Shown in pieces: positions 33,748-60,452 of a stretch of DNA of 64,000 nucleotides (position 1 is the first letter of the stretch; each line of letters begins with the position of its first letter). The notes beneath the pieces were generated by a model, which saw only the letters and a list, made by a program, of their open reading frames with translations, did no database searches and had not been told where the DNA came from. This DNA comes from Promethearchaeota archaeon (GTDB lineage Archaea > Asgardarchaeota > Lokiarchaeia > Sigyniarchaeales > SOKP01): the NCBI GenBank assembly GCA_019058295.1, contig JAHPZI010000006.1, forward strand, positions 1 through 64,000. The letters run 5' to 3'. Both the position numbers and the translations under genes were made by a program.

Positions 33748-35154
33748 ATGACCGAAAGATCTGAAGGAAATAAAGCTCTTTTTGAGCATAGAATATTATC
33801 TACAGGACAAGCAATAGCTTATGGTTTACCAATGGCCGGGTTGCAGGCAATATTGGGAATCCTGGTAAGTTTTACTCTGCTTTTTTATATCGAGATTATG
33901 GGGCAACCCCCAATTGTAGTAGGAGGCATTTTTTCGGCGGGATTAGTTATTTATGCGATTATGTGTATAATAGGTGGGGCAATAGCAGATAAAATCGGAA
34001 AAAAGAAAGTTATGTTAGTTTCTGGACCAATAATGGCAATCACCTTCATATTTATCTGGATACCCCCCATACCTGGTACAAATTTTGGTCAAATTTATAT
34101 TCCCTTAATAATATGGTTTATAATTTTTCTATTTTTGTTTCGAATAATGATTGCAGCTTTTCAATCTTCATTGTTAGCTCTCTTACCAGTGCTCAGCACT
34201 GAGGAGAAAAATAGAGTTAAAGTTAGCATGATTAATATGCTAATGACGATTTTAGGAATAGTGATTGGGATAGTGGGTCCCTTCATTCTAATGAGTAATG
34301 CAACTCAAAATCTTTCCAGAGAAGATCCTAATTTATATTATAAAGATTCTCCTTCCGGTCAAGCAATATATTCTGAAATTTTTTTCTTTGTTATATTGAT
34401 TGGAATTTTTTTCTTAGTACTTATGACTCTGATGATGCTCAAAATAAAAGAACCGAAGAAGAAAAATACAGAGCAAACAGGATTTAAAGAAATTTTAAGA
34501 GAGCTTTTTGAACCTTTAAAAGATAAAAACTATAGAAGATGGTTAATTACATTTTTTATATTTTGGGTACCCTTTATAGCTTTTGAATTTTTAGCCGTAA
34601 ATTTAGCTACATTTGTATTGGATTTGAGAGGGATAGAATTTTTAATTGCGATATTGATTGGGTTTATTTCAACGATCTTTTCATTTGTAATCTGGCAAAA
34701 AATTTCGCAGAAATTTTCGCTGAAGAAGACATTCACTATTTGTTTAATCCTTTCTAGTATATCGTTCTCTCTAATATTAATCTTAACAATACCTATGACA
34801 CATCAATTAATGTTTATATTTGGCCTCAGTATAATATGCCTCTGTTTTTGCTGCTTGGTGGGAACGATGACTTTTCCATCAGCAATAACGGGAGATCTTA
34901 TTGATTCTGCGGAATCAAAAGCTGGTGGAAAATCATTGAGCGGAACGTATTCAGGAGCATATATAATGATAGGATCGTTCGCCGCTGCTCTTTCTATTCT
35001 AATTATATCAATTATTTTGCAATTATTTGGTCCAGAATCACCGATGTCCTATGCGTTAATATTATCTGTAGTTGGCACTGGTTTAATTTTAATTGCTGTA
35101 ATCATCTTTCAGAAAGTTCCAATAGTAGGGACAGAGGAAAGACAGAAACAATAA
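33748..35154 (+). CDS. MFS transporter, glycoside-pentoside-hexuronide (MelB-like) family
   Basis: About 12 TM; GAIADKIGKK, GDLIDSAE..G.Y.G. Confidence 0.85.
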   Translation: MTERSEGNKALFEHRILSTGQAIAYGLPMAGLQAILGILVSFTLLFYIEIMGQPPIVVGGIFSAGLVIYAIMCIIGGAIADKIGKKKVMLVSGPIMAITFIFIWIPPIPGTNFGQIYIPLIIWFIIFLFLFRIMIAAFQSSLLALLPVLSTEEKNRVKVSMINMLMTILGIVIGIVGPFILMSNATQNLSREDPNLYYKDSPSGQAIYSEIFFFVILIGIFFLVLMTLMMLKIKEPKKKNTEQTGFKEILRELFEPLKDKNYRRWLITFFIFWVPFIAFEFLAVNLATFVLDLRGIEFLIAILIGFISTIFSFVIWQKISQKFSLKKTFTICLILSSISFSLILILTIPMTHQLMFIFGLSIICLCFCCLVGTMTFPSAITGDLIDSAESKAGGKSLSGTYSGAYIMIGSFAAALSILIISIILQLFGPESPMSYALILSVVGTGLILIAVIIFQKVPIVGTEERQKQ

Positions 35155-35165
35155 AAATTATAAAT

Positions 35166-36584
35166 TTAAATTTTACCTTGTTTTTTTAGATGTTTAATAT
35201 ATTCTTTTTCCTTCTCATCGTGTATTTTTTTAAGTTCTGATTTTTGCTTGTCCCATTCTGGACCATCTAAAGGGAAAAATATCATAATAACTGCGCTAAA
35301 CAGAACAAATATCGCAGGTATTAATGTTAATGCTACCATTATTCCAATTTGTGCATTTATTGATTGTGTTTGTGCTTTTGCTTGAAAGCCGAAATACACA
35401 ATCACAAATAAAAACATCCAGTTTGCAATTGAGACTGCTGGTTTTTCAATTACAGCATTCATTCCACCATAACTTGTTTCTCTACGCTTACCAGTGCGAG
35501 TTTCGTCAAAATCTATAACATCAGCCATTATAGCTGGTTTTAAAAGAAGTAACGCTGAAAAACCAATTCCCAATAAAAGTAATGGAACTATTGCAGTTAA
35601 TAAAGACCAACCTAAGAAAAAGAAGCTGATAGAGATTACACCAGTAAATGCAAGGCCAAATATATATAATTTTTTTAATCCATATTTTCCAGACAATTTG
35701 GCGAAAATGGGAGTAAATATGAATGCCATTAAAAGAACAAGAAATAGAGGAACAATCGTTAAAAATCCACTCAAATTCAAAACATAAGAAACATAGTAAA
35801 AAATCCCTGTCGTCAAAATTGTTTGAGCTAAAAGGAAAGAAAAATTACTAATTTCATATTTTATAAATGGTCGATTTTTGAGTGTTTCTTTTATAGTATC
35901 TATAAATCCTAATGGTTCTTCAAGTTGAGTATAAAGATTTTCTTTTAAGAAAAAGCTACTTAGAAAAATAATAAAAGCACATATTATTCCAATGAAAATC
36001 ATTGCAATTAAGAACACTGGATTAACATTGGTAGATTTATCACCTGTTAGAAGAAACACTGGCATTATAAATGAGAAAATTAATGCTAGGCCCCCGAGAA
36101 CTACACCATAAGTCACGACCTCAGTTCTAGCTTTTTGTGTGATTGCCATTTCTGCAGGTAAGGCAAATCCAATAAGACCTATTATTGTAAATAACGTATC
36201 AAATAACATAAGTACAATTAAAAGATTTAAAAACAGCCCGAATTCATCATTCCTATCAACAAAAGGAAACCAACAAATAATAAATAAAATCCCAATAATC
36301 GGAGCTCCAAAGCGAACATAGGGAATTCTTCTTCCATATTTTTGAGATTTTGTACGATCTTGTATATAACCAAAAAGAGGATCATTTATCGTATTCCAAA
36401 TAGCAAAGATTAACCAAGCGATTCCAATTAATGCGGCACTCAATCCTAGTTTAACATTATAATAAAATGTTATACTAGAAAATGCTATTCCCGATAAAAC
36501 TCCATTACCTGCATTAAGAGCACCATAAGCTAATTTTGCTTTTCTTGGAATATATTCTTCAAAAGTTTCATTCTTAGAACTCAA
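35166..36584 (-). CDS. MFS transporter, glycoside-pentoside-hexuronide (MelB-like) family
   Basis: NDPLFGYIQDRTKS.KYGRRIPY, MADVIDFDETRTGKRRE. Confidence 0.9.
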   Translation of the reverse strand: MSSKNETFEEYIPRKAKLAYGALNAGNGVLSGIAFSSITFYYNVKLGLSAALIGIAWLIFAIWNTINDPLFGYIQDRTKSQKYGRRIPYVRFGAPIIGILFIICWFPFVDRNDEFGLFLNLLIVLMLFDTLFTIIGLIGFALPAEMAITQKARTEVVTYGVVLGGLALIFSFIMPVFLLTGDKSTNVNPVFLIAMIFIGIICAFIIFLSSFFLKENLYTQLEEPLGFIDTIKETLKNRPFIKYEISNFSFLLAQTILTTGIFYYVSYVLNLSGFLTIVPLFLVLLMAFIFTPIFAKLSGKYGLKKLYIFGLAFTGVISISFFFLGWSLLTAIVPLLLLGIGFSALLLLKPAIMADVIDFDETRTGKRRETSYGGMNAVIEKPAVSIANWMFLFVIVYFGFQAKAQTQSINAQIGIMVALTLIPAIFVLFSAVIMIFFPLDGPEWDKQKSELKKIHDEKEKEYIKHLKKQGKI

Positions 36585-36719
36585 TTTATATCCTCTTTTA
36601 TTGCCTTTAATTTTGTATTTTTAGTTTTAAACAATTAATTTAAATATAAATAGATTCATATATTTATAATTTAATTTATTGATTTTTAAGTTCTTATCAC
36701 ACTTGATTCTTGATTTTCT

Positions 36720-38369
36720 ATGAATATTTTAATAAAAAATGGAAATATTGTTGATGGTACTGGTTCTCCGGGATATAAATCTGATGTTTATATTAAAAAT
36801 AATAGAATTGAAAAGATTGGATTGAACCTGGAAGAAGAGGACTGTGAATTAATTGATGCGTCTAATAAAGTTGTCTCTCCTGGATTTATCGATATGCATT
36901 CTCACGGGGATCTTACGATATTAGAAGTAAACAAAGCTGAAGCAACTGTCATGCAAGGAGTTACAACTCTCGTAGTTGGAATGTGTGGGATAGGTCTTGC
37001 CCCTGCTAACGATAAAGTTCGAGAATATTATTCAAATTTGGTGGAAAATTTGTTTGGTTCAAGTAGATTACAATTATTTGATACTATTCAAGAATATATG
37101 GACGTAATAGAGAAAAAAGGAATTTCTACAAACCTAGCATTTTTTATACCGCATGGAAATGTACGAGCGAGTATAATGGGAATGGATGACCGCCCTGCTA
37201 CGCCAGCAGAATTAGAGGAAATGAAAAATATCATTAAAAGAGAATTAGAAGCTGGGGCTTTTGGTATGAGTACGGGTTTAATATATCCTCCTGGATCCAT
37301 AACATCTACAAAAGAAATTATTGAACTTTGCAAGGTTGTAAGTCAATACGGAGGTATTTACGACTCTCATATAAGAAACGAAGGGACCAAAATCTTAGAA
37401 GAGAGCGAAGGCATGGGTGAATTCATTAAAATTGTAAGAGAAGCAAATATTCAAGGTGAGATATCTCATTGGAAAGCTTCCGGTAATCTCGCATGGAAAT
37501 TAACTCCTAAGATGATTAAAATAGTAGAAAATGCGAGAAATGAAGGTCTTAAAATTTACGCAGATGTTTATCCTTATGAGGAGAGTTCTACTAGTTTGGC
37601 AGGATTTTTATTAAAACCTTGGGTTTTTAAAAATTTTAAAGAAAATTTAACTAATCCAAATACTAGACAAAAAATCATAGATGAAACAATTGATATGTTA
37701 ACCTCTACATTTTTAACTGACCTCACATCTAAAATGCAAGAAATCCCTACAACTAAAATTATAGAGCTTATGTTCAATTTTTTAAAAGATGGCGTAAGGA
37801 TAATCAGTGTTTTGCATAATCATAAAATGGAGGGGAAATTTTTAAACGATGCTTTGGAAATTCTTTATCCAAAAAAAGAAATAGCTGAAGCTTTATTGGA
37901 TTTCATTAGAGATGAGGAAGGGTCGATTATGGTTTCTTTTAAAGGAATGAACGAGAGAAAGAGCATTCTATCTTTATTCAAGCAAGATTTTGTATGTATT
38001 GGCTCTGATGGTTTTTTAGTTTTAGAAGGTAATACCCATCCACGAGCCTATGGATGTTTTCCAAAAATCTTGGCAAGGTACGTCAGAGAAAAGAAAATTG
38101 TATCATTAGAAGAAGGAATTAGAAAAATGACCTCATTAACCGCATCAATTTTGGGATTGAAAGACAGAGGGATTATCAGAGAAAATTACAAGGCAGATCT
38201 CGTAATATTTAATCCTATTGAAATAAAAGATAAAGCTACTTATCAAAACGGGCGTCAATTTCCAGACGGGATAGATTATGTCATTGTAAATGGAGAAATC
38301 ACTGTTAAAAATGAAAAACATTTAGGAGTACTAAATGGTCAAATTTTAAAGCACAGAAATAACGATTAA
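36720..38369 (+). CDS. N-acyl-D-amino-acid deacylase (D-aminoacylase family)
   Basis: PGFIDMHSHGD, GVTT..GMCG, STGLIYPPG, HIRNEG, GSDG, HPRAYGCFP. Confidence 0.92.
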   Translation: MNILIKNGNIVDGTGSPGYKSDVYIKNNRIEKIGLNLEEEDCELIDASNKVVSPGFIDMHSHGDLTILEVNKAEATVMQGVTTLVVGMCGIGLAPANDKVREYYSNLVENLFGSSRLQLFDTIQEYMDVIEKKGISTNLAFFIPHGNVRASIMGMDDRPATPAELEEMKNIIKRELEAGAFGMSTGLIYPPGSITSTKEIIELCKVVSQYGGIYDSHIRNEGTKILEESEGMGEFIKIVREANIQGEISHWKASGNLAWKLTPKMIKIVENARNEGLKIYADVYPYEESSTSLAGFLLKPWVFKNFKENLTNPNTRQKIIDETIDMLTSTFLTDLTSKMQEIPTTKIIELMFNFLKDGVRIISVLHNHKMEGKFLNDALEILYPKKEIAEALLDFIRDEEGSIMVSFKGMNERKSILSLFKQDFVCIGSDGFLVLEGNTHPRAYGCFPKILARYVREKKIVSLEEGIRKMTSLTASILGLKDRGIIRENYKADLVIFNPIEIKDKATYQNGRQFPDGIDYVIVNGEITVKNEKHLGVLNGQILKHRNND

Positions 38370-38540: not shown

Positions 38541-40868
38541 ATGAGTTTAAAAGAAATAACTAAGGAATTATTTACGAGATACGGGTTAACTGAAGAAGAG
38601 ATTAGTGTCTACATTAAATATCTTGGAGTGCCACAAGCAACAATTTCAGAAGTATTCATGTATTTTGAAGAGGGTGAGATTGAATATTCAGAAGTTGAAG
38701 AAATTACTAAAAAACTCGTTGAATCAAATTTTCTACAAAAGGTCGAAGGGATTGTAGATAGGTACGTACCACTCGAACCATTTTTTGAATTATTTACGAG
38801 CGAATCTGAAGCATTTAGACAGAAAATTGCTACTACTAAAGATAATGCTCTTTCTGATCAATCTAGTCGATTTGAAAAGCTGGAATCGATTCAAAATAAA
38901 AGTATCGAAGAAGTTGAGACCGCAGTTGACACTCAAGTGAAGGAATTTTTTCAAGATTCAGATGATAAGAATGCAAGTAAAAAAGAAAGAATTAATAAAG
39001 CAACGACCAGATTTACAGAAACATCTAAAACTTTAGAAAAAGATCTACACGATAATATAGAAAAAGACTTTTCAGAATTAGACAATGATATAAAACAGCT
39101 TGATACTGAATTTCATCAAATAGTAGATGGATTAATTTCTACTAATGAAACTTCAATTAACGCAGCCAAAACTGATATCGACAAAATTATTACTGATTTA
39201 TTAGGAGATTTCTCAACAAGAGTAAGCAATTTAGAAACTGAATTAAAAAAGGATTTGGATGATCATGTAGACAGACATAAGAACATTGCCAATGAACTTA
39301 AACCTAAAATGGAACAAATTCTTGAGAAATACCTCGAAAGAATGGATAAAATCGTTACTGATCTAAAGGAACGCATTTCAAGATTATTAGCTGACCATAT
39401 GAGCCATGTAAAAAGCACAACAAGTAATATTGAATCAGATATTCATACAAAAGTCGAAGATAGACATTTAGAAATAAAAAATATAATCAATTCATATAAA
39501 AATAGAGCCTTGACATTATTAGAAAATCTAATTACCCAATCAAATAAATTTAGTGATCTTGCTGAAGCAATTCCGAATACAGGTTTTTTCTTTGGAAAAA
39601 AGAAGAAATTGAAATATATTAATGCTTGGAAGGTTATAGAAACAGAAGTTGCAGATATTTCAAGACCATTCAAAGATGATTTTGTGAATGAGTGCGATAA
39701 ATATATTAATGATACTCAAAGTACTTCTGATGAACTAAAAAAGGAAGTATCAGATACCGTGGCAAATGAGAATCAATCATTAGGAACAGAAACGACTGAC
39801 CTTGATAAAAGAGCGCAAGAAACGATTACTGCAGAATTAGATACGCTTGCTACTGATATGTCCGGCGAAATTGATAATACATTACAAACTGGAGTAAAAG
39901 ATTGTTCTGATACTACTGTAAAACTGAAAGATTCATTAGAAAATTCTTTAAAAACACATCATAAAGACTATGATGATGCTATAAATAAACATAAAGATGG
40001 ATCCTTGAAACATTATACCGATTTCGATGCTGAGATTAAAGCTAAGTCATCTGAGTTTAAAGATAAACATACGAAGACTGGTAATGATAGATTAAGCAAA
40101 ATTCGAAGTGATTTTGATGGATCTAAATCTAATACATCTGGAAAAATTGATGCTGAGATTAATCTTTGGAATGAAGAATCTGCTGATATGGATGTTATGT
40201 TGGCTGATATGCTTGAAAATCATAAAAATAAATACAAACTAAATGCTGAAACTCTACAAAATAGTTTATCTAATACAACTCGAGATACTACTCAAAATGT
40301 GAAAGACGCAATTGCCGATTTTACACTTAATTTTATGAATGCTATTGATGATGTGACAGAAGCAGCTGAAAATAACGAAGAAAAACTTAAAGATATTCAT
40401 AACGCCTCTAGCTCAATTCCAGTTTCAGAAATCGCAAAAGTTACCACGTGGCATACGGTTGGAAGAACGGCGTTAATAGCAGCTGTTAAAGATGCTATCT
40501 ATCGAACCAAATCTTCAGTCATAGTTGTCACTCCCGTGGTTGTACCTGAAATTTTACAAGTTATCTCTGAATTTGCATATGAGAGAAAGGTAGCAAGATT
40601 TATGATCACTACACATTGGGATTTGAGTCAATACCAAGATATCCTTAAGAAGATGATGCAATTGGGCAACATTCAATTCCGCAATTTAAATACTCAGGGA
40701 GATTATTTTGCTGTAACTCGAGATGCCGAAGAAGTGATTCTGGCGCCCTATTCAGAGAAAGATTCAGAGATAATTAGCGTTATCAGTAATCACGAGCAAT
40801 ACTGTAATCTTTACTCCCAGATCATCGGACCAGTTTTTACAGCCAATAGTAGACCAGTTAAACTCTAA
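38541..40868 (+). CDS. TrmB-like protein: N-terminal wHTH, long helical repeat region, C-terminal TrmB effector/PLD-like domain
   Basis: YGLTEEEISVY..YL....TISEV...L.E..F......RY.PLEP; C-terminal AIYRTKSSVIVVTP...FAVTRDAEEVILA. Confidence 0.7.
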   Translation: MSLKEITKELFTRYGLTEEEISVYIKYLGVPQATISEVFMYFEEGEIEYSEVEEITKKLVESNFLQKVEGIVDRYVPLEPFFELFTSESEAFRQKIATTKDNALSDQSSRFEKLESIQNKSIEEVETAVDTQVKEFFQDSDDKNASKKERINKATTRFTETSKTLEKDLHDNIEKDFSELDNDIKQLDTEFHQIVDGLISTNETSINAAKTDIDKIITDLLGDFSTRVSNLETELKKDLDDHVDRHKNIANELKPKMEQILEKYLERMDKIVTDLKERISRLLADHMSHVKSTTSNIESDIHTKVEDRHLEIKNIINSYKNRALTLLENLITQSNKFSDLAEAIPNTGFFFGKKKKLKYINAWKVIETEVADISRPFKDDFVNECDKYINDTQSTSDELKKEVSDTVANENQSLGTETTDLDKRAQETITAELDTLATDMSGEIDNTLQTGVKDCSDTTVKLKDSLENSLKTHHKDYDDAINKHKDGSLKHYTDFDAEIKAKSSEFKDKHTKTGNDRLSKIRSDFDGSKSNTSGKIDAEINLWNEESADMDVMLADMLENHKNKYKLNAETLQNSLSNTTRDTTQNVKDAIADFTLNFMNAIDDVTEAAENNEEKLKDIHNASSSIPVSEIAKVTTWHTVGRTALIAAVKDAIYRTKSSVIVVTPVVVPEILQVISEFAYERKVARFMITTHWDLSQYQDILKKMMQLGNIQFRNLNTQGDYFAVTRDAEEVILAPYSEKDSEIISVISNHEQYCNLYSQIIGPVFTANSRPVKL

Positions 40869-41132: not shown

Positions 41133-42419
41133 TCAATCCCAGGTTGCCTTTGTAACTGAGGAATCATCGTCCTCTTCGTGAATACGCTTTAGGTCTATGT
41201 CTTGATAACCTGGTAATGTTTGGAGAATCCTTCTCATCGCAAATTTTATATCTTTTGCAGAGGCAATAAAGCGACCCACTATTAGAATATCCGCTCCCTG
41301 CTTTAGAGCGAATATTGCACTATTCGGTTCAATACCTCCCGCTACAGCAACTAAAACACGATCCCTCCCCGAAGCCTTTTTGTGTTCTTTGTATAATTCT
41401 TTGATTTTTGGAACCAAAGCCCATCTTGCTTTTTGCGCGGCATCCGGCGATTGATCACCTTCTACAGACTGCTCAACATCAATTGCTCTATGAAGTATAA
41501 CAACATCGGGGATTTGTTTTAGCGAACTCAATTTCGCAATCGGATCAGTCACTTCCATAGTATCAATAAAAGCATGAATACCAAGGCGCTGTGCTTCTAA
41601 GATAAATTTATCAAGTGATGCTGTAGAGGCTAAACCACTTGCTACAACTCCATCCGCAGTAGCGTCAAATGCGAAATCAACCTCTAATTTCCCTACATCC
41701 AATGTCTTTAAATCAGCCACTATGAAAGCTTCTTTAGCTACTTTTCTAATTTCTCTAATTGCATCCATACCATACTTCTTGAGAAATGGCGTCCCTACTT
41801 CAAGTATGATACGATCACTTTTTGGAAGTTCTTTTACTACTTTAACCTGCTTTTCGAGAGCTGGATGATCCAAAGCTACTTGAATATAAGGAGGTCTCCA
41901 TAATCTAGGGATCCTTATACCTGCCACTGGGTGTTTTGCTCTATCTTTATCATAGAATATCTTTTCAATTGGAGGATATTCCTTCAATGCTCTCTGGATT
42001 GCTAATTTAGTTGCACCATAATTGTATTGATATATTTTTCTATAGTCAGTCGCACCAGGATGAATAAAAACACTAGCAATTATAACCCACTCATCGAGTT
42101 TATTCATTGGAATAATTCCTTCTTCAACAGCATCTGCTACTCCCTTTGCAACTGCGGCTTGAGCAGGTCCAAAAATTTTGTTCGCATCCTCCATTTTCGC
42201 AACAGTAACTTTCGGAACAACTAAACTTATTGGTTTAGATAAAAGATTGGGTCTAATAGCTGCTAAGAGGCCACCGTGACCTTTGGAAGGCTCACTCAGA
42301 GCATTTGCAAAAGATATTCCAACGGGACCGCTTTTGGATCCAATAATTAGGTCAATATGAGCTAGGTTTTCCCCCTCACCTACTAATGCCTCACCAATAT
42401 AATATTCATTTTTAACCAT
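41133..42419 (-). CDS. fae-hps: Bifunctional formaldehyde-activating enzyme / 3-hexulose-6-phosphate synthase
   Basis: IGEALVGEG..AHIDL, FGPAQAAVAKGVAD, NYGATKLAI; QVALD, EVGTP, ADLKTLDVG, LHRAIDVE, AGGI. Confidence 0.92.
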   Translation of the reverse strand: MVKNEYYIGEALVGEGENLAHIDLIIGSKSGPVGISFANALSEPSKGHGGLLAAIRPNLLSKPISLVVPKVTVAKMEDANKIFGPAQAAVAKGVADAVEEGIIPMNKLDEWVIIASVFIHPGATDYRKIYQYNYGATKLAIQRALKEYPPIEKIFYDKDRAKHPVAGIRIPRLWRPPYIQVALDHPALEKQVKVVKELPKSDRIILEVGTPFLKKYGMDAIREIRKVAKEAFIVADLKTLDVGKLEVDFAFDATADGVVASGLASTASLDKFILEAQRLGIHAFIDTMEVTDPIAKLSSLKQIPDVVILHRAIDVEQSVEGDQSPDAAQKARWALVPKIKELYKEHKKASGRDRVLVAVAGGIEPNSAIFALKQGADILIVGRFIASAKDIKFAMRRILQTLPGYQDIDLKRIHEEDDDSSVTKATWD

Positions 42420-42622
42420 ACAAAACACGTCTAATGTATTTTATTTAAAACATTGTATTTTGGAGATATTATAAAATAATTTTTACTTACAATTAAAACA
42501 AGTTAATTCACTAATATTAAAATTTCTATAATTATAATAATTTGAAAATGAAAATTTGCTTCAATCTTCTGAAAAAAAAAAAGCAAGAAAAAAAAAAAAA
42601 ATAAAATTTAAAATTTGTTGAT

Positions 42623-43615
42623 TTATACCGAAATTTCTCTTTTCTTTAAGCTTATCAATCCATAGATTAAAAGAAATACAGCAATACCAATCCAAACTAA
42701 CAAGGAAACCCATGGATATACATAATCTGTCCTTTTCATGCCGCCAGGGTTGATGCCTTGGTCGGGATCCGTAGGTGATGCAATATCATATACCCCAGTG
42801 AACTGAGCAAACCAAGTTTGCCATTCTGCTACTGGAGGAATTGCATTAAAGAAGTCTAAAAAGCCAACATAGATATTTCCTAAATGATATCCAAGATCGA
42901 TGATATATAAATAATAAGTCTCATAAGAATCAGCGAGGAACATTTTGAGAATCATCATACCTAAGAAAGAAAAAATCACTAAGAAAATTACTATTAATCC
43001 AGCATTTCTTGGTCGATTTACGATCGATGATAGTGCTAATGTAATACTGCAAAAAATAAGTAAAAGGACCAAAGAATAAAGATAGGTCACAAATAGGAAC
43101 GGAATGATTCCAAAAAAGTGAATAATGTTGGCAGAATATCTTAGTACAGCTATCCATCCTATTGAAAAAATGGCAACAAAACTTAGAGTAGCACCATAAA
43201 GGAATAATCCAATATATTTACCAATAAATATTTTCACTCGCATAATTGGTTTACTTACTAATATCAACATAGTTCCTGAATGAACCTCTTCGGAAATAAG
43301 CGAAGCTCCACTAGTACCAATAATGCAGATAAAGGAAATTCCTAAAGTCCAAAAGAATAGTATAAAAACAATAGCAATACTTATAGCTGCTGCAGCGTGC
43401 TGAGGAGAGATTGATTCATATTCAATTGTTGATGGAAAAGCAATAGTGACTATTAGAGGAATGAGCATAATAATTAAGGAAACGAGAAATTTCTTAAGCG
43501 ATGCTAATTCCTGAAATGTTTTTTTAACTAAGATAAGTGTATTTCTGTGTGTTTCTTTCTCTACTCCTTCTGTATCTTTTCTTGAAAAAACTGTTTTTAA
43601 TTTTGCGATGCTCAT
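42623..43615 (-). CDS. ABC-2 type transporter permease
   Basis: ISEEVHSGTMLILVSKPI.R..IFIGKY; several TM helices. Confidence 0.9.
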   Translation of the reverse strand: MSIAKLKTVFSRKDTEGVEKETHRNTLILVKKTFQELASLKKFLVSLIIMLIPLIVTIAFPSTIEYESISPQHAAAAISIAIVFILFFWTLGISFICIIGTSGASLISEEVHSGTMLILVSKPIMRVKIFIGKYIGLFLYGATLSFVAIFSIGWIAVLRYSANIIHFFGIIPFLFVTYLYSLVLLLIFCSITLALSSIVNRPRNAGLIVIFLVIFSFLGMMILKMFLADSYETYYLYIIDLGYHLGNIYVGFLDFFNAIPPVAEWQTWFAQFTGVYDIASPTDPDQGINPGGMKRTDYVYPWVSLLVWIGIAVFLLIYGLISLKKREISV

Positions 43616-44592
43616 TTTTTATCACCCTTTTCTACATAAACTTCCATAAAAATATCTTGAAGTGAGATTTCAGGTATATGGAAGCTATATAATATTGCGT
43701 TATTTTCTAATATCACCTTAGGCATTTCCTGCTTAAGTTTGTCCGCATCTTTAGGTATTATTTGGATTGTTCCATCTTCTTCTTTTAGCCATGTATTTTG
43801 GATATAATCTTTCCGTTCTAAAGATTTTAAAATTTGCTCGTTCTTATTGGTGTCTAATTCATATGTATTGCCGATGTATTGTTGCTTAATATTTTTTAGA
43901 GTATCAGAGATAACAATTGCACCCTTATTAATCATAGTTACTCTGTCGCACATCTGTTCAATTTCAGATAAAATGTGGCTTGATACAAAAACACTTACTG
44001 TTTTAGAGATTTCCTTAATTTTATCAATAATATTTGCGCGTCCTATAGGATCTAAATTAGCTGTTGGCTCATCTAATATAAGAAGTTTCGGTTTGTGTAT
44101 TAATGCTGCCGCTATACCAATTTTTTGTTTCATACCACCTGAATATTCACCGATAGGTCTAGTTCTATCATTAAAAATATCAAAATAAACACACAATTCT
44201 TGAGCTCTCTTCCTTGCTTCCATCTTATTCAATCCTCCCAACTTTCCCATATAAATCAAATATTCTTCTCCTGTCATCTTGTCGTAAAACACTGGATCTT
44301 GAGGTAAAAATCCTATTAAGCGTCGTGCTTCTACTGTACCTGCTTTTTCGTTTCTGATTTTTGCTTCACCCGACGAAATAGCAAGGGCTCCAACCAACAT
44401 ATTCATTGTTGTTGTCTTACCAGCTCCATTAGGACCAAGAAAACCATGAATTCCAGGTTCTATGCGTAGATTTATTTTCTTTACAGCTTCAAATGCTTTG
44501 TCTTTTTTCCCATAGATTTTTTGAAGTTCATGACTCCAAATTTCATATTGAAATTCTGCTTCTTTCTCATATGCTTTCTTTCTCTTAATCAT
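43612..44592 (-). CDS. ABC transporter ATP-binding protein
   Basis: GPNGAGKTT, YSGGMKQK, LILDEPT, SSH. Confidence 0.95.
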   Translation of the reverse strand: MIKRKKAYEKEAEFQYEIWSHELQKIYGKKDKAFEAVKKINLRIEPGIHGFLGPNGAGKTTTMNMLVGALAISSGEAKIRNEKAGTVEARRLIGFLPQDPVFYDKMTGEEYLIYMGKLGGLNKMEARKRAQELCVYFDIFNDRTRPIGEYSGGMKQKIGIAAALIHKPKLLILDEPTANLDPIGRANIIDKIKEISKTVSVFVSSHILSEIEQMCDRVTMINKGAIVISDTLKNIKQQYIGNTYELDTNKNEQILKSLERKDYIQNTWLKEEDGTIQIIPKDADKLKQEMPKVILENNAILYSFHIPEISLQDIFMEVYVEKGDKK

Positions 44593-47500
44593 ATCTGTAT
44601 CTCCTCCATTTCTTTTTCTTTATCGACTAAAACGATATTTGCTTTTCTCTTTTTATTTCGTTTATAAAATATAACAAGAGCGCTAATAACTACGGCTATT
44701 ATTGCAGTTAAAATGAACATAGAATAATCGACTGGAACTATAATTGTAACTTCATCCACTGCGATGACTATACCACTTTTATCATACATGAAAATTTGAA
44801 CATTTTTTTCACCAGGTCCAAGAGATACTTTACAAGACAATGATTCTGTCCTATTATAAACATTTCCATCAATTATTAACTCGAAGAAATCGTAGTCTGC
44901 ATCCGTTTCCCATTCAATAGTGAATCTACTCGATGACATCTCATTATCCTCATCATCTTCGAGGTCAGAGAATTCAACTTCAAATTCTGAATTTATGCAA
45001 AAGAACGATTCACCACTTGCAATAATAAATTCCGATCTTCTATCACCTGTAAAATCATCGGTTAAATATATTCCGTCAACACTTCCTAAATTAAACCTAT
45101 AGAGTAATTCTTGATTGTATATATCTAATAGATCTGTAATAGAACCAGTTATATAAGCATCCTCTGAACGTGTATATGTATTATGGCTGCAAATAATTTC
45201 ATCCTTTCCATCTCCATTAAAATCACCTATGTTTTCGATAACATCGAAAAATTCATAAGTTACATCTTCCCAGTCATAAGTTTGTTCATATGGCTCTAAC
45301 TCCCATGCTTCTTTAGCAAAACCACTGTCATCATCATCATCATCGTCATCATCATCACCAACATCATCACCATAATCCCATTCGTCAGGTTCAATTTTTT
45401 CTAATTCAACACCAGAACTATGAGCAATATCTAATGGTAAAATTGCTGCGCCTTTTGAATATAAATTATCATCCCAACCACTCTTACAAGATTGCGTTCC
45501 AATAATTCCATCGAGAATATTGTCTTCATTGAGATCACTTGTATACGCAAATGGCAGCGTAAATGTTCGTTCGTCTGAAACGATTCTATTCCCTTCCTCA
45601 TAGTTTTCGCTAATCTTACCATCTTCAATTATTTCTTCTAGATCAATGTCAACAATTGCATCGCCAGGACTACCTGAAGATCCACTAAAAATTCTAATAC
45701 TTCGACCCCAATGGGCGGAAGCTAAATGCTCATAATAACCATCCCCAGTTAAGTCAGCGTACGAAAATTTAATTTTATAACCGATATAAGTCGGTCTAAA
45801 ATCATTCTTTACACGCGTCCATTCACTTCTTCCGAGGGGGTCCAAGTTAAGGAGATTTATATAACAGACAAGAGATTGGGTATAAGGATCAATAATTTTT
45901 ATTCTTTGTAAATTATTCTCTGTATCGTAATCACCTAAAATTAATCCTAACTTTCCAGATTTATACTCTGTTGTACCTGGAATTTCATAGAAACTCCATT
46001 GACTATAATTAAGAGACATTGCATCATTATAAGAAATCGTTGGATCTATATAATTATCATAGTTAGTTATTGCATTATCCCAATCAGCATCATTGATGTA
46101 TCTATGAGAAAATTTAGTTGAAGGAACCTGAAATGTGCCACTTAAAATCCAACCGTTTAAGCTGTGATTCAAATATGTAGCGCTAACACGATTATAAGGA
46201 ACTTTAGCTCTACAATCATGACCCCACTGAGTAGAAACGCTCTGATTTTTCACGTCATAAAGAATTAATCTTGATGACCAATCACTACACGTTTCAAATC
46301 CAGCTACTACTAATACATCAGGATACTCATCTCCGTTACCATTTATAACCTCAAAATCTTGAATTTTAAGATTTAAAATATTATCTAAATTCTCGTCCCA
46401 TTGATCAGTTTCCAAATTATACACATAATATTGGTCCCATTCATTTCCAAATACTCCCCAGTAGAACAATGCAACCCCAAAGCTATCAATAGATATATTG
46501 AATGGACTTGTGTGGTTAATGGTAATACGTAATCTCAAAGTATTGTCTGATCCTAAGAACGGTGTTAATAGAGACTTATTCTCGTAATCAAATCTTACAC
46601 CATTATCTACACCCCATACTTCTGTTGTATTATACGTTCCCCGTTGAATTACAAACACGCTATCATTTCTATATGTAGTAGTTAAATTAAAACTTAAATG
46701 ATTGTTTCTAAATCCGCCCGGGTTAGTTGTATCATCATTGTATCTACCAATCCATTGAGACAAATTATAATCATTATTATCCAAAGTTCTTTGGGATGCA
46801 TCAATCTGCATTTTTTCCCAAGTATTACCGTTTTCATTATAGATTTCATACTTAAAATCTGCAGGTTCAATAGTAATATTTGCTGCGATCATAGTCTGTA
46901 GTTTAAGAGCTGATATTCTTTCAATTTGAGTAAGAGCATGATAATCAGTTCCGAATTCTAAAGGAATGGTAAAATTAAGTATAATCTGCCATATATTGTC
47001 TTCGTCTAGGTCTTCTGCTTTGATCGTATAATTTCCGAGCTCATATAGATAATTGACAACTAATTCATCAATCGATAAATCAAAACTGCTAGAATGTTCT
47101 GCATCAATTCTAATCTTTACTAAGTTATTATTATCATCATCAACAAAATCAACGACCTCAGCCCATTCATCTTCTAAGAATTGCCATGTCTGAACAGTAG
47201 TCGAATTTATTGAGTTCGGACCTATACTTCTCCAATCATTAATAAAGAAATCAAATATTGAAATTTCTATCTCATCAACTACTTTTGAGAGGTTTCCGAT
47301 ATAGTCCACGATGAGATAATTTGGAAGAATTCCAAGATCTAATGGTTGATTGAAAGCCATTTCTATTGCTATTCTCTGTTTTCCTCCAGAAGAGACCGAA
47401 TCAACAGTCCAAAAATTATTATCCTCTTTTTCAGTATCTTCAGAGGAGCTAATTACAGCAGCACCGGTTTTTATATCTGCCGTTGCGTCAGTGGAAGTTA

Positions 47501-49901
47501 TAGTATGATTATCTCCGGTAAGACCAAATAAATCGAAAAATGAATCGGTTGAATTTCCTGATTCAAGTCCAACTTCCGTTGCATGTGTTAAAGTAGAGTA
47601 AGGCCAATAATCATACCATAGAATATCATTCCTATCTAAAGGATTGTGCCAACTATTTGGAATCTCACCATATGTTCTATGATATATATCACCCTCTTTC
47701 GATTCTAAACCAGAGGGACTAATGAAGGTTCCATCATTTTTGAAATCTCGATAATATTTATAAGGGAAATCGACTAAAGGTCTTTCCCAGATTATTTCAG
47801 CATTTTTACCGCTAATTGCCAAGAATCTTGTATAGGGTGCTAATAATGCTCTATTGATTGCTTCTTCCCTGTAATTATTTTCACCGTCCTCATCATAAGA
47901 TGTTATTGAAACGGTTGATTGTCCAGTAAGATCTTTAATATAATCTTCGAGCTCTGGAGGATATGCACTCGGCATTATCCATCCAGCATAATCATCAATA
48001 TTATCATCATCAATATCCCCGATGTTAACAATATCTCTAAATCCCTCGTAATAATTAATGGGGGATTTAGTCTCCCATATTACTCTTCCTGTTGCTCCAC
48101 TAATGGTCAAGAATTCAGAGATCAAAGTTTCATCCTCAGTAGGGTCTCCATCCTGTATCTTATACGATTGCCAGCAATTAACCCCCATATCTTCACCTTC
48201 AAATTCCCTCCATGTTGGGTCAAAACTACTGATTCTCTGAAATAGGAAGTCTCGTACTTTATCACCATCAATATCTTCAATCTGAATCAGTTCTGTACCT
48301 CCCGTTGCTTTAGATCTAGACCATAGAATTTGCCCGTTTTTCGTATCGATAAGCATATATTTACCATCATCACCAATAGCAAACAAATCATCAACACCAT
48401 CATCATTAGTATCTCCTACATTTAATAAATACTTACCAACAGTATCAGTATCGTCATAATCATCGTCCCAGTCATCTCCCGTCCTAACGACAATAGATGA
48501 TCCCGATGAGTCCAAGCCGTAGGAAAAATAATCATTATAGTAAATACCCTGATAATTTGAACCTTGACCTGTCGCACCTTCAAAATTATTTCTAAAGAAA
48601 TATCCTCTAGTCTTTGATCCTACATTAATGAATTCTGGATATGAAGCTGTATAAAGAGTATTATCGTAATCAAATTCACCTCCACTTATGTCTTCAATAG
48701 AATCACCATCAAAATTAAAAATAACACCCTCAAACTCGACCTCTTCTAAATTATTAAAATCCTCATCAGAATATTCCAGATGGTACGCAATTGCTATATA
48801 TTCTTTTGAACCGTCTCCATTAATGTCAATGGTATTTAATAATTTCATTCCAGCATGTTGAAAAATTCTCCGTTCACAGCTATAAGGGGAAGTTAATATC
48901 TCATTAGTTGATCCCACTTCATCATCATATTCTGGTATTTCATAAAGTTCATAGCTATCTATTTCTTCACCATCATCACCTGAGACCGCATATAAATATC
49001 CGTCATCTGTAGAAACTATTATATCATCACCGGATATAAGTATATCATCAATAGAGCTATCTACTTCTTTCTCTACTACCACTGCTAAGCTTCTAACTAA
49101 TATCGTTGTTGAAGGAGCTATTTCTGAAGTCCACTCAAGTTCTCCAGTATCCATATCAACTGCTACTAATTCTCCTGCTTCTGAACCCGCAATAATTTTA
49201 TCATCTAATTGTTCAATGTTCCAGATATCATTAGTACAAGCATCATCATTTACCCAAATTTCATCTCCCTCATCTCCCTCTAAAGCAATAATCCTATTCC
49301 AAGAGGAAATGACAACATCTTGGCCGTCTTGATCATCAATATCATCAACTACTTCAACATCCCATGTATAGGTAGTAAATTCTCGAACAGCAAAAGTCTC
49401 AGAATCATACCCTTTAACTCTTGGATCGTATTTCCAAATCTCACGCCCATCATCTGAAGCAATAGCAATGACATTAGCGTGATCTCTGTCGTATACCACC
49501 AAAACTATGTCTTTCAACCCATCTCCGGAAAGATCATTAATTAAATCAAATGCAATTACATCTCCAAATGTCATATAACTCATGCTTATGACACCATCCA
49601 ATGAGAGTGTTGCAATTCCTCCGTCAGTTCCTATAACAATGAATTCTTCTCCTCCATCTTCAAAGGTAACCTTTTGAGGCTGCATACTCGCTCCCTCACC
49701 TGGCATTCCACTTCCAAATCTCCATAATAATGAATCAATATCTTCATCTCCATTTTCTTTAGGTTCCTCGTAGTAATAATCTATTAAAGGAGGCAATATA
49801 ATCGCAAGAATTGGCACTGCTACTAATGCTGCTATTATCCCCATCGATATTGGTTTCTTATGTTTTTTAACAAATGGTTTGAGCTTAGATTTAAATTCCA
49901 T
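44589..49901 (-). CDS. 1770-aa acidic surface protein with FG-GAP/VCBS and PQQ-like propeller repeats, N- and C-terminal TM
   Basis: Repeated D-x-[NDST]-x-D-G loops (DLSGDGLKD, DINGDGSKE, DTNDDGVDD, DIDGDKVRD, DLTGDGYYE, DFNGDGKDE, DFTGDRRSE); DGREIW and TGELEW propeller motifs. Confidence 0.85.
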   Translation of the reverse strand: MEFKSKLKPFVKKHKKPISMGIIAALVAVPILAIILPPLIDYYYEEPKENGDEDIDSLLWRFGSGMPGEGASMQPQKVTFEDGGEEFIVIGTDGGIATLSLDGVISMSYMTFGDVIAFDLINDLSGDGLKDIVLVVYDRDHANVIAIASDDGREIWKYDPRVKGYDSETFAVREFTTYTWDVEVVDDIDDQDGQDVVISSWNRIIALEGDEGDEIWVNDDACTNDIWNIEQLDDKIIAGSEAGELVAVDMDTGELEWTSEIAPSTTILVRSLAVVVEKEVDSSIDDILISGDDIIVSTDDGYLYAVSGDDGEEIDSYELYEIPEYDDEVGSTNEILTSPYSCERRIFQHAGMKLLNTIDINGDGSKEYIAIAYHLEYSDEDFNNLEEVEFEGVIFNFDGDSIEDISGGEFDYDNTLYTASYPEFINVGSKTRGYFFRNNFEGATGQGSNYQGIYYNDYFSYGLDSSGSSIVVRTGDDWDDDYDDTDTVGKYLLNVGDTNDDGVDDLFAIGDDGKYMLIDTKNGQILWSRSKATGGTELIQIEDIDGDKVRDFLFQRISSFDPTWREFEGEDMGVNCWQSYKIQDGDPTEDETLISEFLTISGATGRVIWETKSPINYYEGFRDIVNIGDIDDDNIDDYAGWIMPSAYPPELEDYIKDLTGQSTVSITSYDEDGENNYREEAINRALLAPYTRFLAISGKNAEIIWERPLVDFPYKYYRDFKNDGTFISPSGLESKEGDIYHRTYGEIPNSWHNPLDRNDILWYDYWPYSTLTHATEVGLESGNSTDSFFDLFGLTGDNHTITSTDATADIKTGAAVISSSEDTEKEDNNFWTVDSVSSGGKQRIAIEMAFNQPLDLGILPNYLIVDYIGNLSKVVDEIEISIFDFFINDWRSIGPNSINSTTVQTWQFLEDEWAEVVDFVDDDNNNLVKIRIDAEHSSSFDLSIDELVVNYLYELGNYTIKAEDLDEDNIWQIILNFTIPLEFGTDYHALTQIERISALKLQTMIAANITIEPADFKYEIYNENGNTWEKMQIDASQRTLDNNDYNLSQWIGRYNDDTTNPGGFRNNHLSFNLTTTYRNDSVFVIQRGTYNTTEVWGVDNGVRFDYENKSLLTPFLGSDNTLRLRITINHTSPFNISIDSFGVALFYWGVFGNEWDQYYVYNLETDQWDENLDNILNLKIQDFEVINGNGDEYPDVLVVAGFETCSDWSSRLILYDVKNQSVSTQWGHDCRAKVPYNRVSATYLNHSLNGWILSGTFQVPSTKFSHRYINDADWDNAITNYDNYIDPTISYNDAMSLNYSQWSFYEIPGTTEYKSGKLGLILGDYDTENNLQRIKIIDPYTQSLVCYINLLNLDPLGRSEWTRVKNDFRPTYIGYKIKFSYADLTGDGYYEHLASAHWGRSIRIFSGSSGSPGDAIVDIDLEEIIEDGKISENYEEGNRIVSDERTFTLPFAYTSDLNEDNILDGIIGTQSCKSGWDDNLYSKGAAILPLDIAHSSGVELEKIEPDEWDYGDDVGDDDDDDDDDDSGFAKEAWELEPYEQTYDWEDVTYEFFDVIENIGDFNGDGKDEIICSHNTYTRSEDAYITGSITDLLDIYNQELLYRFNLGSVDGIYLTDDFTGDRRSEFIIASGESFFCINSEFEVEFSDLEDDEDNEMSSSRFTIEWETDADYDFFELIIDGNVYNRTESLSCKVSLGPGEKNVQIFMYDKSGIVIAVDEVTIIVPVDYSMFILTAIIAVVISALVIFYKRNKKRKANIVLVDKEKEMEEIQI
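45328..45370. repeat. Imperfect (TCA)n tract encoding poly-Asp in the 1770-aa protein
   Basis: tcatcatcatcatcatcgtcatcatcatcaccaacatcatcac, translating to GDDVGDDDDDDDDD. Confidence 0.85.
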
Positions 49902-60153: not shown

Positions 60154-60452
60154 CAATTTTCTTAAACTTATATTAAAACGGGTAAATAAATAATTTAATA
60201 TAATAAATTATAAAGTTATTTTCATTAATCTATTTTTTCTTTTTCTAAATATTTAGAAAAATATAAAAATCCCCTTAAATACCAAGATATTTCAACTGGA
60301 ATTTGAGGAGTCTTTATTTTATAATTAGAATAAATTGTCTCAACATTTATTTCAAATTTTATTATTAATATTTGAATTAGGGTTATTTTTTTGAAAAAAT
60401 TTAATATAAATCAAAATTTATTGAATGGAAAGGATATAATACTATATTTGGT

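Follow-up and report, generated by a model that had tools for sequence, protein, structure and literature searches.

TrmBL2 (TK0471 / PF0496; PDB 5bpd, 5bpi, 5box and 5bqt) is a chromosomal protein and global repressor of Thermococcales (PMC3031468), which forms stiff nucleoprotein filaments that stall archaeal SMC (PMC11840125). It is abundant, binds dsDNA largely non-specifically, has about 264 aa and combines a TrmB winged helix, a linker helix of about 55 residues and a PLD-like domain, without a sugar-binding barrel. TrmB of Pyrococcus furiosus (PDB 3qph and 2f5t) is a sugar-sensing regulator that carries in addition a C-terminal sugar-binding beta-barrel subdomain, and proteins of the TrmB family are mostly specific regulators (PMC4158304). 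Canonical TrmB and TrmBL2 dimerise through a parallel coiled coil after the winged helix. Long fold-back rods are found in other proteins: in the SMC, Rad50 and MukB arms, an intramolecular antiparallel coiled coil tens of nm long brings the N- and C-terminal parts together into one head, arm lengths are kept matched in evolution and the arm contains a conserved discontinuity, while the cytoplasmic hairpin of methyl-accepting chemotaxis proteins (MCPs) is reported to gain and lose repeat units symmetrically in its two arms about a conserved tip that binds CheA/CheW (Alexander and Zhulin, PNAS 2007). Hendecad (11/3) coiled coils have been described in archaea, as in the E-G peripheral stalk of the A/V-ATPase (PMC3293630; PMC6131620), and also occur in tetrabrachion, and the same periodicity is found in apolipoprotein A-I/A-IV/E repeats. 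Finally, bacterial proteins such as Noc and RacA link a DNA-binding domain to a membrane- or pole-targeting element: Noc uses an N-terminal amphipathic helix and a ParB/CTP switch, and RacA a short coiled coil and DivIVA.

We examined a window of 64,000 nucleotides of a Promethearchaeota archaeon (positions 1 to 64,000 of contig JAHPZI010000006.1, assembly GCA_019058295.1) and found an open reading frame encoding a 775-aa protein (P0001), in which the two halves of a TrmBL2-type protein are joined by a predicted fold-back helical rod of roughly 40 nm with an aromatic, positively charged loop at its far end (Table 1). More than 330 full-length homologues share this architecture, which rules out a chance arrangement. 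The family spans Lokiarchaeia and Heimdall-, Hod-, Borr- and Atabey-labelled lineages, with rods of 385–1548 aa, and every named record is Asgard. The protein was found in 62 of 68 sampled genomes of this archaeon's own family, as a single copy per genome, and the genome under study holds only this copy and a short C-domain paralogue. The gene is monocistronic: no co-directional partner is conserved, the upstream genes vary and the downstream Fae-Hps gene is convergent, and in the seven genomic contexts examined (the window itself and those of six homologues) the gene stood alone, without kleisin-like neighbours or a conserved neighbouring target operon. We found no paper on this family.

Table 1. 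Features of the TrmB-headed rod protein, with positions in the 64,000-nucleotide window.
Position	Strand	Residues	Feature	Net charge	Window entropy (bits)
38541..40868	+	1-775	Whole gene
38541..38783	+	1-81	TrmB-type winged helix-turn-helix, one half of the predicted head	-9
38784..39569	+	82-343	N-arm (outgoing helix) of the predicted hendecad coiled coil	-16
39570..39617	+	344-359	Tip loop IPNTGFFFGKKKKLKY, aromatic plus polybasic	family median of +5 (aa 340-364)
39618..40436	+	360-632	C-arm (returning helix) of the predicted hendecad coiled coil	-25
40437..40865	+	633-775	TrmB/TrmBL2-type PLD-like alpha/beta domain, the other half of the predicted head
39261..39380	+	241-280	Most conserved stretch of the N-arm, with invariant Pro255; candidate hinge or docking zone, N-arm side		0.50-0.58, against 1.0 for the arm as a whole
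39798..39920	+	420-460	Conserved stretch of the C-arm (G451, C455), opposite aa 241-280 in the mirror register		0.68-0.70

We first focused on the two end domains. The Pfam TrmB domain (PF01978) matched aa 13–80 at 26.9 bits, just above the cut-off of 25.6 bits. In the AlphaFold (AF2) model the domain comprises H18-29, H35-39, H49-61 and a wing at E65-68/E74-77, and in VIA structural comparisons aa 13–80 superposed on BlaI/MecI/Fur winged helices (Z about 11), a fold that was present in the AF2 models of both this protein and a 751-aa orthologue. The winged helix keeps the recognition-helix pattern of the family (YxxVxEITNxLxxKGF) and an invariant wing arginine, R74, though the first recognition-helix positions (aa 50, 51 and 53) are variable across the family. 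It is also unusually acidic, against a family median net charge of -4, and four of the nine family-conserved basic positions are replaced (R29G, R32Q, K62S and K66Q). The C-terminal domain (residues 632–775) superposed on the N-subdomain of the TrmB effector domain (2f5t residues 110–243; Z 17.7, rmsd 2.0 Å over 132 residues), on 3qph (Z 17.2) and on TrmBL2 (5box residues 122–264; Z 15.7), followed by PLD-fold proteins (Nuc 1byr; Z 13.4). The comparison was repeated with the 751-aa model and gave Z 18.1 for 2f5t and 17.9 for 3qph, so that over both models the 2f5t rmsd was 1.9–2.0 Å over 131–132 residues and TrmBL2 gave Z 15.2–16.1. This likeness is at fold level only, since neither Pfam Regulator_TrmB (PF11495) nor a profile search of PDB sequences gave any match. 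The alignment to 2f5t and 3qph stops at residue 243 of the chain, and the protein lacks the sugar-binding barrel of TrmB. The catalytic HxK(x)4D motif of phospholipase D enzymes is absent, and only 6 of 121 homologues have a chance match anywhere in the protein.

The top Foldseek hits of the protein were the TrmBL2 structures 5bpi, 5bpd and 5box (E 3e-8), and the last 60 residues of the C-arm plus the C-domain aligned with TrmBL2 65–262. The three parts are thus in the same order as in TrmBL2, at a sequence identity of only 12–14%, but the linker helix is 551 aa (aa 82–632), about ten-fold longer than in TrmB. AF2 predicted helices at 82–195, 203–343, 353–456 and 463–624. Hydrophobic periodicity peaked at 3.66 residues in the N-arm and 3.68 residues in the C-arm, was absent from both end domains, and was 3.59–3.71 in 15 family members with rods of 385–1548 aa, with no power at 3.5. 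Core positions followed an a-d-e-h pattern when the N-arm was laid out in rows of 11. Both arms have an 11/3 (hendecad) repeat.

The loop lies at the middle of the rod (midpoint 357), and AF2 predicted it as non-helical at 344–352. It is not literally the only break, since AF2 shows low-confidence gaps at 196–202 and 457–462 and Pro255 is invariant, but it is the only loop combining Pro, Gly, aromatic and polybasic residues, and by the Wimley-White scale it is the most interface-philic window of the protein, as it is of the Loki-type proteins. The motif G[FL][FL][WF]xGKKKK was present in about 119 of 121 homologues (GFFFGKKKK here, GFFWxGKKKK in most relatives), and the looser pattern G[FLI][FL][WF]x(0-2)[GK]xK was found once in 119 of 121. 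Distant members also carry a break with basic and aromatic residues at the exact rod midpoint (RGSAWKALFxGKHK, SRKLFKGKEEF, GFRKP, and P/K-rich loops in 1546–1548-aa rods). However, the strong hydrophobic character is restricted to Loki-type members: in Heimdall-labelled and other subfamilies the tip is basic with one or two aromatics and is not the most hydrophobic window.

We then measured arm lengths without an alignment, from the position of the tip motif against the HMM-defined end of the winged helix and start of the C-domain. In 119 Loki-type sequences of 8 length classes the N-arm was 256–340 aa and the C-arm 262–346 aa (r = 0.9994), C minus N stayed at 6–9, and the steps between classes were 11, 11, 7, 11, 22, 11 and 11 residues. 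In a second subfamily (755–1050 aa) the N-arm was 255–405 aa and C = N+13 in all six lengths, so that the arms match almost residue for residue across at least 14 length classes. MAFFT placed the indels as equal pairs (84/84, 62/62, 44/44, 22/22, 11/11, and 73/73 for this protein), roughly mirror-symmetric about the tip. Length class changed at least 11 times on a tree of the Loki-type subfamily, indicating that the pairing is recurrent.

Covariation (MI-APC) supported the same register: the 12 best of 300 antidiagonals all fell at i+j = 695–708, which is twice the tip position of 348–352, while a parallel control was flat, and the register appeared separately for N-arm segments 85–190, 190–300 and 300–343. 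This signal rests on about 68 effective sequences and is confounded by phylogeny. Pro255 and G451 sum to 706, inside this register. In the AF2 model of this protein, residues 245–454 aligned with the hairpin of a soluble chemoreceptor, a top helical match across the tip (3g67; Z 11.7, 204 residues), and residues 227–459 with an Smc coiled-coil segment (5xg2; Z 10.3). In the model of the 751-aa orthologue the head-proximal helices 83–240 and 451–603 had pLDDT 84–92, residues 65–605 aligned loosely with the cohesin arm (7ogt; Z 12.8, 450 residues), and Fur-family alignments ran from the winged helix to residues 599–606, which shows that the C-arm end lies beside the winged helix in the model. 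Pairing in the models is inferred from which solved structures they align with, at Z values where long helices match non-specifically; pTM was 0.31–0.38, and the two models disagree on whether aa 241–280 is helical (the equivalent stretch, 241–272, is non-helical with low pLDDT in the 751-aa model, which also breaks the helix at 422–450, equivalent to the 457–462 break of this protein).

Compared with the SMC, Rad50 and MukB arms, the protein shares the antiparallel geometry, the matched arms and a conserved discontinuity, but it has no SMC_N, AAA or ABC Pfam hit, no Walker A motif (the pattern occurred in 1 of 121 homologues), no hinge domain and no zinc hook (CxxC in 0 of 121 homologues); its apex is a loop of about 9–16 residues and its repeat is a hendecad rather than a heptad. 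Compared with the MCP hairpin, the repeat unit is 11 residues (sometimes 7) rather than 7, the ends carry TrmB domains rather than HAMP or transmembrane parts, and no MCPsignal domain was found at E up to 0.1; the likeness to 3g67 is geometric only. With the peripheral stalk, tetrabrachion and apolipoproteins it shares the 11/3 periodicity, with no homology beyond the repeat, although one homologue is annotated as V-ATPase subunit E; those proteins form parallel hetero- or homo-oligomers or lipid belts, not an intramolecular hairpin between DNA-binding-type domains. Noc and RacA are functional analogies only, unrelated in sequence and fold, and neither has a fold-back rod of fixed length.

A preliminary description had noted in the protein a winged helix, a long helical region with a break (FFFGKKKK) at its middle and a TrmB effector/PLD-like domain, and this observation is confirmed. 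Its interpretation is partly supported. The structural half, an antiparallel hairpin of two arms of about 270 residues that brings the two TrmB domains together, is strongly supported, and the three outcomes named beforehand as refuting it were not observed: the arm lengths co-vary, the tip motif is conserved, and the models match long two-helix hairpins and SMC arms rather than stacked bundles. The functional half, a membrane-binding tip and a DNA-to-membrane tether or scaffold, remains an inference from composition (aromatic-polybasic tip, acidic rod).

We conclude with high confidence that the gene belongs to an Asgard-wide family derived from a TrmBL2-type protein, in which the linker helix has been expanded into an intramolecular, antiparallel hendecad hairpin with the arms in mirror register (i+j about 700), so that the winged helix and the PLD-like domain sit together as a head and the tip lies about 40 nm away (about 265 residues per arm at 0.15 nm each). 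Rod length changes only by matched insertions or deletions of 11 or 7 residues in both arms, and the rod includes a conserved discontinuity (Pro255 opposite Gly451/Cys455) about 95 residues from the tip. The data do not strictly separate intramolecular pairing from an antiparallel intermolecular dimer with the same register, but the matched arms and the midpoint loop favour the hairpin. All this we regard as shown or strongly supported, whereas the function is inferred: the head would bind DNA or chromatin in the manner of TrmB/TrmBL2, the tip would insert into or adhere to an anionic membrane surface, and the stiff acidic rod would act as a fixed-length spacer, together making a nucleoid-to-membrane tether or ruler. 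We hold this mechanism only tentatively, and structure and mechanism taken together fall somewhat short of even likelihood. The acidic winged helix, in this protein and in the family, is unlike what we would expect of a non-specific chromatin coater, the tip is variable, and non-core rod positions average 1.2 bits of entropy against 1.0 in the winged helix, so that the rod surface is nearly as conserved as the globular domains, suggesting partners or self-assembly that a simple spacer does not need.

The alternative that survives best, though less likely, keeps the hairpin but makes the tip a protein-docking or self-association site, with two rods joined tip-to-tip as Rad50 does at its hook, bridging two DNA-bound heads about 80 nm apart, or with the tip and the conserved rod surface docked on a partner such as the cytoskeleton, an ATPase or another rod protein, making a chromatin bridge or scaffold. 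Two especially conserved zones face each other (241–280 with 420–460, and 81–120 with 580–620), which suggests binding surfaces, exposed FFF/FFW clusters are also typical of protein-protein hot spots, and the loss of most tip hydrophobicity in distant subfamilies, with position and basic character kept, fits a co-evolving partner better than a generic lipid anchor. Against it, no partner gene is linked to this subfamily in the seven contexts, the genome has no other family member than the short C-domain paralogue, and the tip has no CxxC or hinge domain.

It is unlikely, but possible, that the protein is a transcription regulator gated by the rod, whose head binds specific promoters while the rod and tip sense, or are sequestered by, the membrane or a partner, so that head conformation or availability changes, which would make it a membrane-sequestration switch rather than a structural tether. 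This would fit the specific regulators of the TrmB family, the conserved recognition-helix pattern and R74, the acidic domain charge and the single copy per genome. However, the sugar-binding subdomain that makes TrmB a sensor is absent, the first recognition-helix positions are variable, no neighbouring target operon is conserved, and a phase-quantised, length-matched rod of 28–115 nm is far more than a switch needs.

An apolipoprotein-like protein, with helices paired only in the soluble state that open and lie flat on a membrane or lipid body, as in exchangeable apolipoproteins and perilipins, with the tip as initiating anchor, is very unlikely. Pfam Apolipoprotein A1/A4/E (PF01442) matched aa 173–323 (E 1.2e-8), the same family is precomputed on most homologues, ApoLp-III appeared as a faint hit in one distant member, and the periodicity is that of lipid-bound amphipathic helices. 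Nevertheless, the score of 35.3 bits is far below the cut-off of 90 and can be explained by shared 11/22-residue periodicity alone, only about 3–4 of 11 positions are hydrophobic, the arms are acidic and would be repelled by anionic lipid, and the strict arm matching and inter-arm covariation show that the paired state is the one under selection. Least likely, an extended parallel dimeric coiled coil of about 80 nm, or a stack of short bundles with the FFFGKKKK segment as a mere linker, would fit the parallel dimers of canonical TrmB and TrmBL2, the low pTM and a smoothed conservation that correlates almost as well at a parallel offset (r 0.66) as in mirror register (r 0.70), but gives no reason for equal segment lengths through at least 16 length changes in two subfamilies or for indels at mirrored distances from one loop, and disagrees with the antidiagonal covariation and the hairpin matches of the models.

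How Asgard archaea, the closest known prokaryotic relatives of eukaryotes, organise their DNA relative to their membranes and cytoskeleton is almost unknown, and here the ends of the protein come from a known archaeal chromatin protein while its middle is an SMC-like predicted fold-back rod without an ATPase. A rod length quantised in 11-residue steps and matched in both arms through many independent changes implies strong selection on a precise physical length, which is the signature of a molecular ruler, tether or scaffold. A bolder possibility, unlikely but not excluded, is that Asgard archaea have a dedicated, length-calibrated chromatin-to-membrane tether, in which the TrmBL2-like head would sit on DNA, the tip would sit in the inner leaflet of the cell membrane and the acidic hairpin would set the nucleoid-membrane distance at 28–115 nm depending on lineage; this would be a prokaryotic functional analogue of the coiled-coil tethers that hold eukaryotic chromatin at the nuclear envelope, and the conserved Pro/Gly joint might let the rod fold like an SMC elbow. 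If the tether reading holds, it would give a concrete molecular handle on nucleoid positioning in the lineage from which eukaryotes arose, and if it does not, the family is still a clean natural example of compensatory indel evolution in a hendecad coiled coil.

We analysed a 775-aa ORF located in low-GC DNA (27–36% GC) of a 3.2-Mb, 79%-complete Asgard genome. The Pfam search detected a TrmB winged helix in this protein (aa 13–80), just above threshold, a sub-threshold Apolipoprotein A1/A4/E match (aa 173–323), and no match for the C-terminus. AlphaFold2 (AF2), run with an alignment of 79 sequences (mean pLDDT 72), predicted an N-terminal winged helix, four long helices, a loop between the second and third of them, and a C-terminal alpha/beta domain. 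The motif IPNTGFFFGKKKKLKY lies almost at the middle of the helical region (aa 82–632), of which the midpoint is residue 357. The preliminary description of a TrmB-like protein with a long helical region broken at its middle by this motif was therefore accurate, with two qualifications: the tip is not the only irregularity of the rod, and the TrmB likeness of the C-terminus cannot be seen by sequence searches. The coordinates of the features are listed in the table.

Features of the rod protein, its gene neighbourhood and its paralogue
Feature	Nucleotide position	Strand	Residues
TrmB-headed rod gene	38541-40868	+	775 aa
Winged-helix region	38541-38783		aa 1-81
Predicted helix 1			aa 82-195
Predicted helix 2			aa 203-343
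Conserved rod zone with invariant Pro255	39261-39380		aa 241-280
Tip motif IPNTGFFFGKKKKLKY			aa 344-359
Predicted tip loop			aa 344-352
Predicted helix 3			aa 353-456
Conserved rod zone with Gly451/Cys455	39798-39920		aa 420-460
Predicted helix 4			aa 463-624
Predicted alpha/beta domain			aa 636-772
Cluster of two divergent MFS_2/GPH-type symporters and an Amidohydro_3 protein	33748-38369
Bifunctional Fae-Hps gene	41133-42428	-
ORF with PQQ/beta-propeller repeats, ABC-2 permease and ABC ATPase (overlapping stop/start at 43612-43615 and 44589-44592)	42623-49901	-	1770 aa (PQQ/beta-propeller ORF)
LuxE-like acyl-protein synthetase	58873-60156	-
ORF without Pfam match	60453-61607
ORF without Pfam match	62471-63709
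C-domain paralogue, outside the window, same genome (contig C21; locus L002:1375-1944)	about 216118-216687	+	189 aa

We first focused on the end domains. The best PDB hits of the whole model in the Foldseek search were TrmBL2 (5bpi, 5bpd, 5box; E about 3e-8), followed by TrmB (2f5t, 3qph) and then by PLD-fold proteins. Structural alignment with VIA placed residues 632–775 on residues 110–243 of TrmB 2f5t (Z 17.7, rmsd 2.0 Å, 132 residues) and on residues 122–264 of TrmBL2 (Z 15.7), while aa 13–80 were placed on BlaI/MecI winged helices. A second model, of a 751-aa orthologue, gave the same result (Z 18.1). In contrast, a profile search of PDB sequences with the C-domain gave only chance-level ParF, TetR and Argonaute hits (E at least 0.03), and the Pfam search at E up to 10 gave scattered noise and no Regulator_TrmB; only fold comparison identified this domain. 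The matches to NCBIfam ZorA (17.9 bits against 190) and to Pfam VBS_C3G9, Baculo_PEP_C and Apolipoprotein were rejected as coiled-coil or periodicity noise. The protein stops where TrmBL2 stops and lacks the sugar-binding barrel of TrmB. It has no HKD motif, Walker A motif or CxxC, and across the 121 homologues these patterns occurred only as rare, unconserved matches or not at all. The head is therefore TrmBL2-like in composition. In this protein and its 95%-identical relative, four basic positions of the winged helix that are conserved in most family members are replaced (R29G, R32Q, K62S, K66Q), giving a net charge of -9, against a family median of -4; a 751-aa orthologue keeps R29, R32, K62 and K66.

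Five lines of evidence supported that the rod is a hairpin. First, a motif G[FLI][FL][WF]x(0-2)[GK]xK occurred exactly once in 119 of 121 homologues. Second, the lengths of the two arms were matched. Homologue lengths were quantised at 751, 775, 795, 810, 831, 875, 897 and 918 aa, and the arms, measured without an alignment, ranged from 256 to 340 aa (N-arm) and from 262 to 346 aa (C-arm), with a difference that stayed at 6–9 residues (r = 0.9994) and steps of 11, 11, 7, 11, 22, 11 and 11. A second subfamily, with tip RGSAWKAL (755–1050 aa), had N-arms of 255, 299, 306, 317, 361 and 405 aa, with C = N+13 in all six. The MAFFT alignment showed the indels as equal pairs (84/84, 62/62, 44/44, 22/22, 11/11, and 73/73 for the protein studied here), which lie about 190–215 columns on either side of the tip. 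On a tree, length class changed at least 11 times within the Loki-type subfamily; rooting with the second subfamily did not give a clean outgroup, so only this within-subfamily parsimony count was used.

Third, in a covariation analysis (MI-APC) of 121 sequences, corresponding to about 68 effective sequences, the 12 best of 300 antidiagonals lay at i+j = 695–708, which is twice the tip position, while a parallel control was flat. The same register recurred when the N-arm segments 85–190, 190–300 and 300–343 were analysed separately. The correlation of conservation between the arms also peaked in mirror register, at i+j = 700 (r 0.70), but a parallel offset reached 0.66; thus, we did not count it as evidence. 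Fourth, in the AF2 model residues 245–454 aligned with a chemoreceptor hairpin and residues 227–459 with an Smc coiled-coil segment. In the model of the 751-aa orthologue the head-proximal helices had pLDDT 84–92, residues 65–605 aligned loosely with the cohesin arm, and Fur-type alignments linked the winged helix to residues 599–606. The models contribute only through such structural alignments, without a direct reading of helix–helix contacts, and the helical Z-scores are in the non-specific range; the sequence-based evidence of arm matching and covariation carries the argument. Finally, in members with rods of 385–1548 aa the exact midpoint carried a Gly/Pro break with basic and often aromatic residues. 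Taken together, we consider the hairpin very likely. Such a hairpin would form a rod of about 40 nm (38–50 nm across the Loki length classes) with one globular end, whereas an extended coiled coil would be about 80 nm long with domains at both ends. A complex prediction for two copies of the tip-proximal hairpin (aa 230–470, with alignment), run without controls, scored 0.25 against a mark of 0.42, which says nothing either way about self-association.

Both arms showed a single sharp hydrophobic periodicity at 3.66–3.68 residues (11/3), with no power at 3.5, and the same was observed in 15 family members. Core positions followed the hendecad a-d-e-h pattern, and indels of 11 or 7 residues preserve the coiled-coil phase. 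The arms are acidic (-16 and -25), while the tip is +5. The rod was nearly as conserved as the domains, and two pairs of strongly conserved zones face each other in the mirror register: 241–280 with 420–460, which are the most conserved stretches of the rod, and 81–120 with 580–620. In the first pair, invariant Pro255 lies opposite Gly451/Cys455 (255+451 = 706), and it is here that the two AF2 models disagree, lose confidence or break the helix. This is a candidate elbow, hinge or docking site for a partner, about 95 residues from the tip, and all length variation lies between this zone and the head.

The protein matched in 206 of 301 sampled genomes of the phylum, including 62 of 68 in its own GTDB family, and full-length matches at about 20% identity were found in several other families. 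The closest named records were 'Promethearchaeota archaeon' MAGs, and the nearest ESM Atlas clusters were all Promethearchaeota. All 80 best GTDB loci whose titles name a taxon are Asgard, while the rest are labelled only 'uncultured archaeon'. A C-domain profile search found only 219 clusters among 1.84 billion representatives, comprising long forms of 560–1794 aa with the domain at the extreme C-terminus, and many short forms of 170–230 aa. Named distant members are labelled Heimdallarchaeota, Hodarchaeota, Borrarchaeum, Atabeyarchaeia and Lokiarchaeota. The longest members seen were three metagenomic representatives (P0243, P0255 and P0261; 1788–1794 aa), with rods of 1546–1548 aa (about 115 nm per arm if folded back) and a Pro/Lys-rich break at the exact midpoint; P0261 stands alone beside a DNA ligase and an SSB-like gene. 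No second rod gene was found in the 79%-complete genome of the protein studied here, but we identified a paralogue that combines a helix of about 45 aa, the same PLD-like C-domain (39% identity to aa 643–763) and a polybasic tail (RETRKKAKKEKKKKKMSK), without a winged helix. PLD-fold domains often pair, so this paralogue could cap the head of the long protein, a possibility inferred from the domain type alone.

The gene stands alone in all seven contexts examined (the window and six homologues), with no conserved co-directional neighbour, and no operon with a STAND-type ATPase was seen in any of them. The Fae-Hps gene (formaldehyde-activating enzyme fused to hexulose-6-phosphate synthase; NCBIfam PRK13307, E 1e-156) is convergent with the rod gene and keeps that position in distant orthologous loci (L014, L015 and L016), which is conserved synteny without operon logic. 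The symporter and amidohydrolase cluster upstream is also present in L015, together with a second amidohydrolase and an enolase-superfamily (MR_MLE) gene, and is probably an uptake and catabolism locus unrelated to the rod gene. Elsewhere in the window, the ORF with PQQ/beta-propeller repeats lies directly upstream, on the same strand, of the ABC-2 permease and the ABC ATPase, and the three look like one operon. Finally, a LuxE-like acyl-protein synthetase (PF04443, E 3e-23) occurs in this Asgard genome, next to two ORFs that had no Pfam match.

The interpretation proposed in the preliminary description, an antiparallel rod that reunites the two TrmB domains and presents a membrane-binding tip as a DNA-to-membrane tether or scaffold, was partly supported. 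What the analysis itself establishes is a fold-back hendecad rod, at the high likelihood stated for the hairpin, with a TrmBL2-like head and a conserved basic-aromatic tip, and strong selection on rod length. DNA binding by the head is inferred from the parent TrmBL2, which is a chromosomal protein, repressor and SMC roadblock (PMC3031468; PMC11840125), and both the binding of the tip to anionic membrane and the role of the acidic rod as a spacer are likewise inferences. The tip is the most interface-philic window of the Loki-type proteins by the Wimley-White scale, and aromatic-plus-polybasic loops are classic peripheral membrane anchors. However, the winged helix is acidic, four of its conserved basic positions are lost in this genus, the tip is less hydrophobic outside Lokiarchaeia, and the strong surface conservation hints at partners. 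The tether reading is therefore tentative, though it remains ahead of its rivals. A scaffold that docks on a partner or through its tip is possible but unlikely, and a gated regulator is less likely still. An apolipoprotein-like lipid binder is very unlikely, and a non-hairpin is the least likely of all.

TrmB domains and antiparallel coiled coils are known, but we found their present combination nowhere else, and full-text literature searches on TrmB proteins of Asgard archaea and on archaeal hendecad and antiparallel coiled coils returned no description of this family, although coverage of subscription journals was limited and this should be read as not found rather than absent. The combination comprises a non-ATPase head of DNA-binding type, a predicted hendecad hairpin with phase-quantised, length-matched arms, and an aromatic-polybasic apex. 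Rod length is under strong selection in this family, and in the tether reading the acidic rod would act as a spacer between a head on DNA and a tip on anionic membrane.
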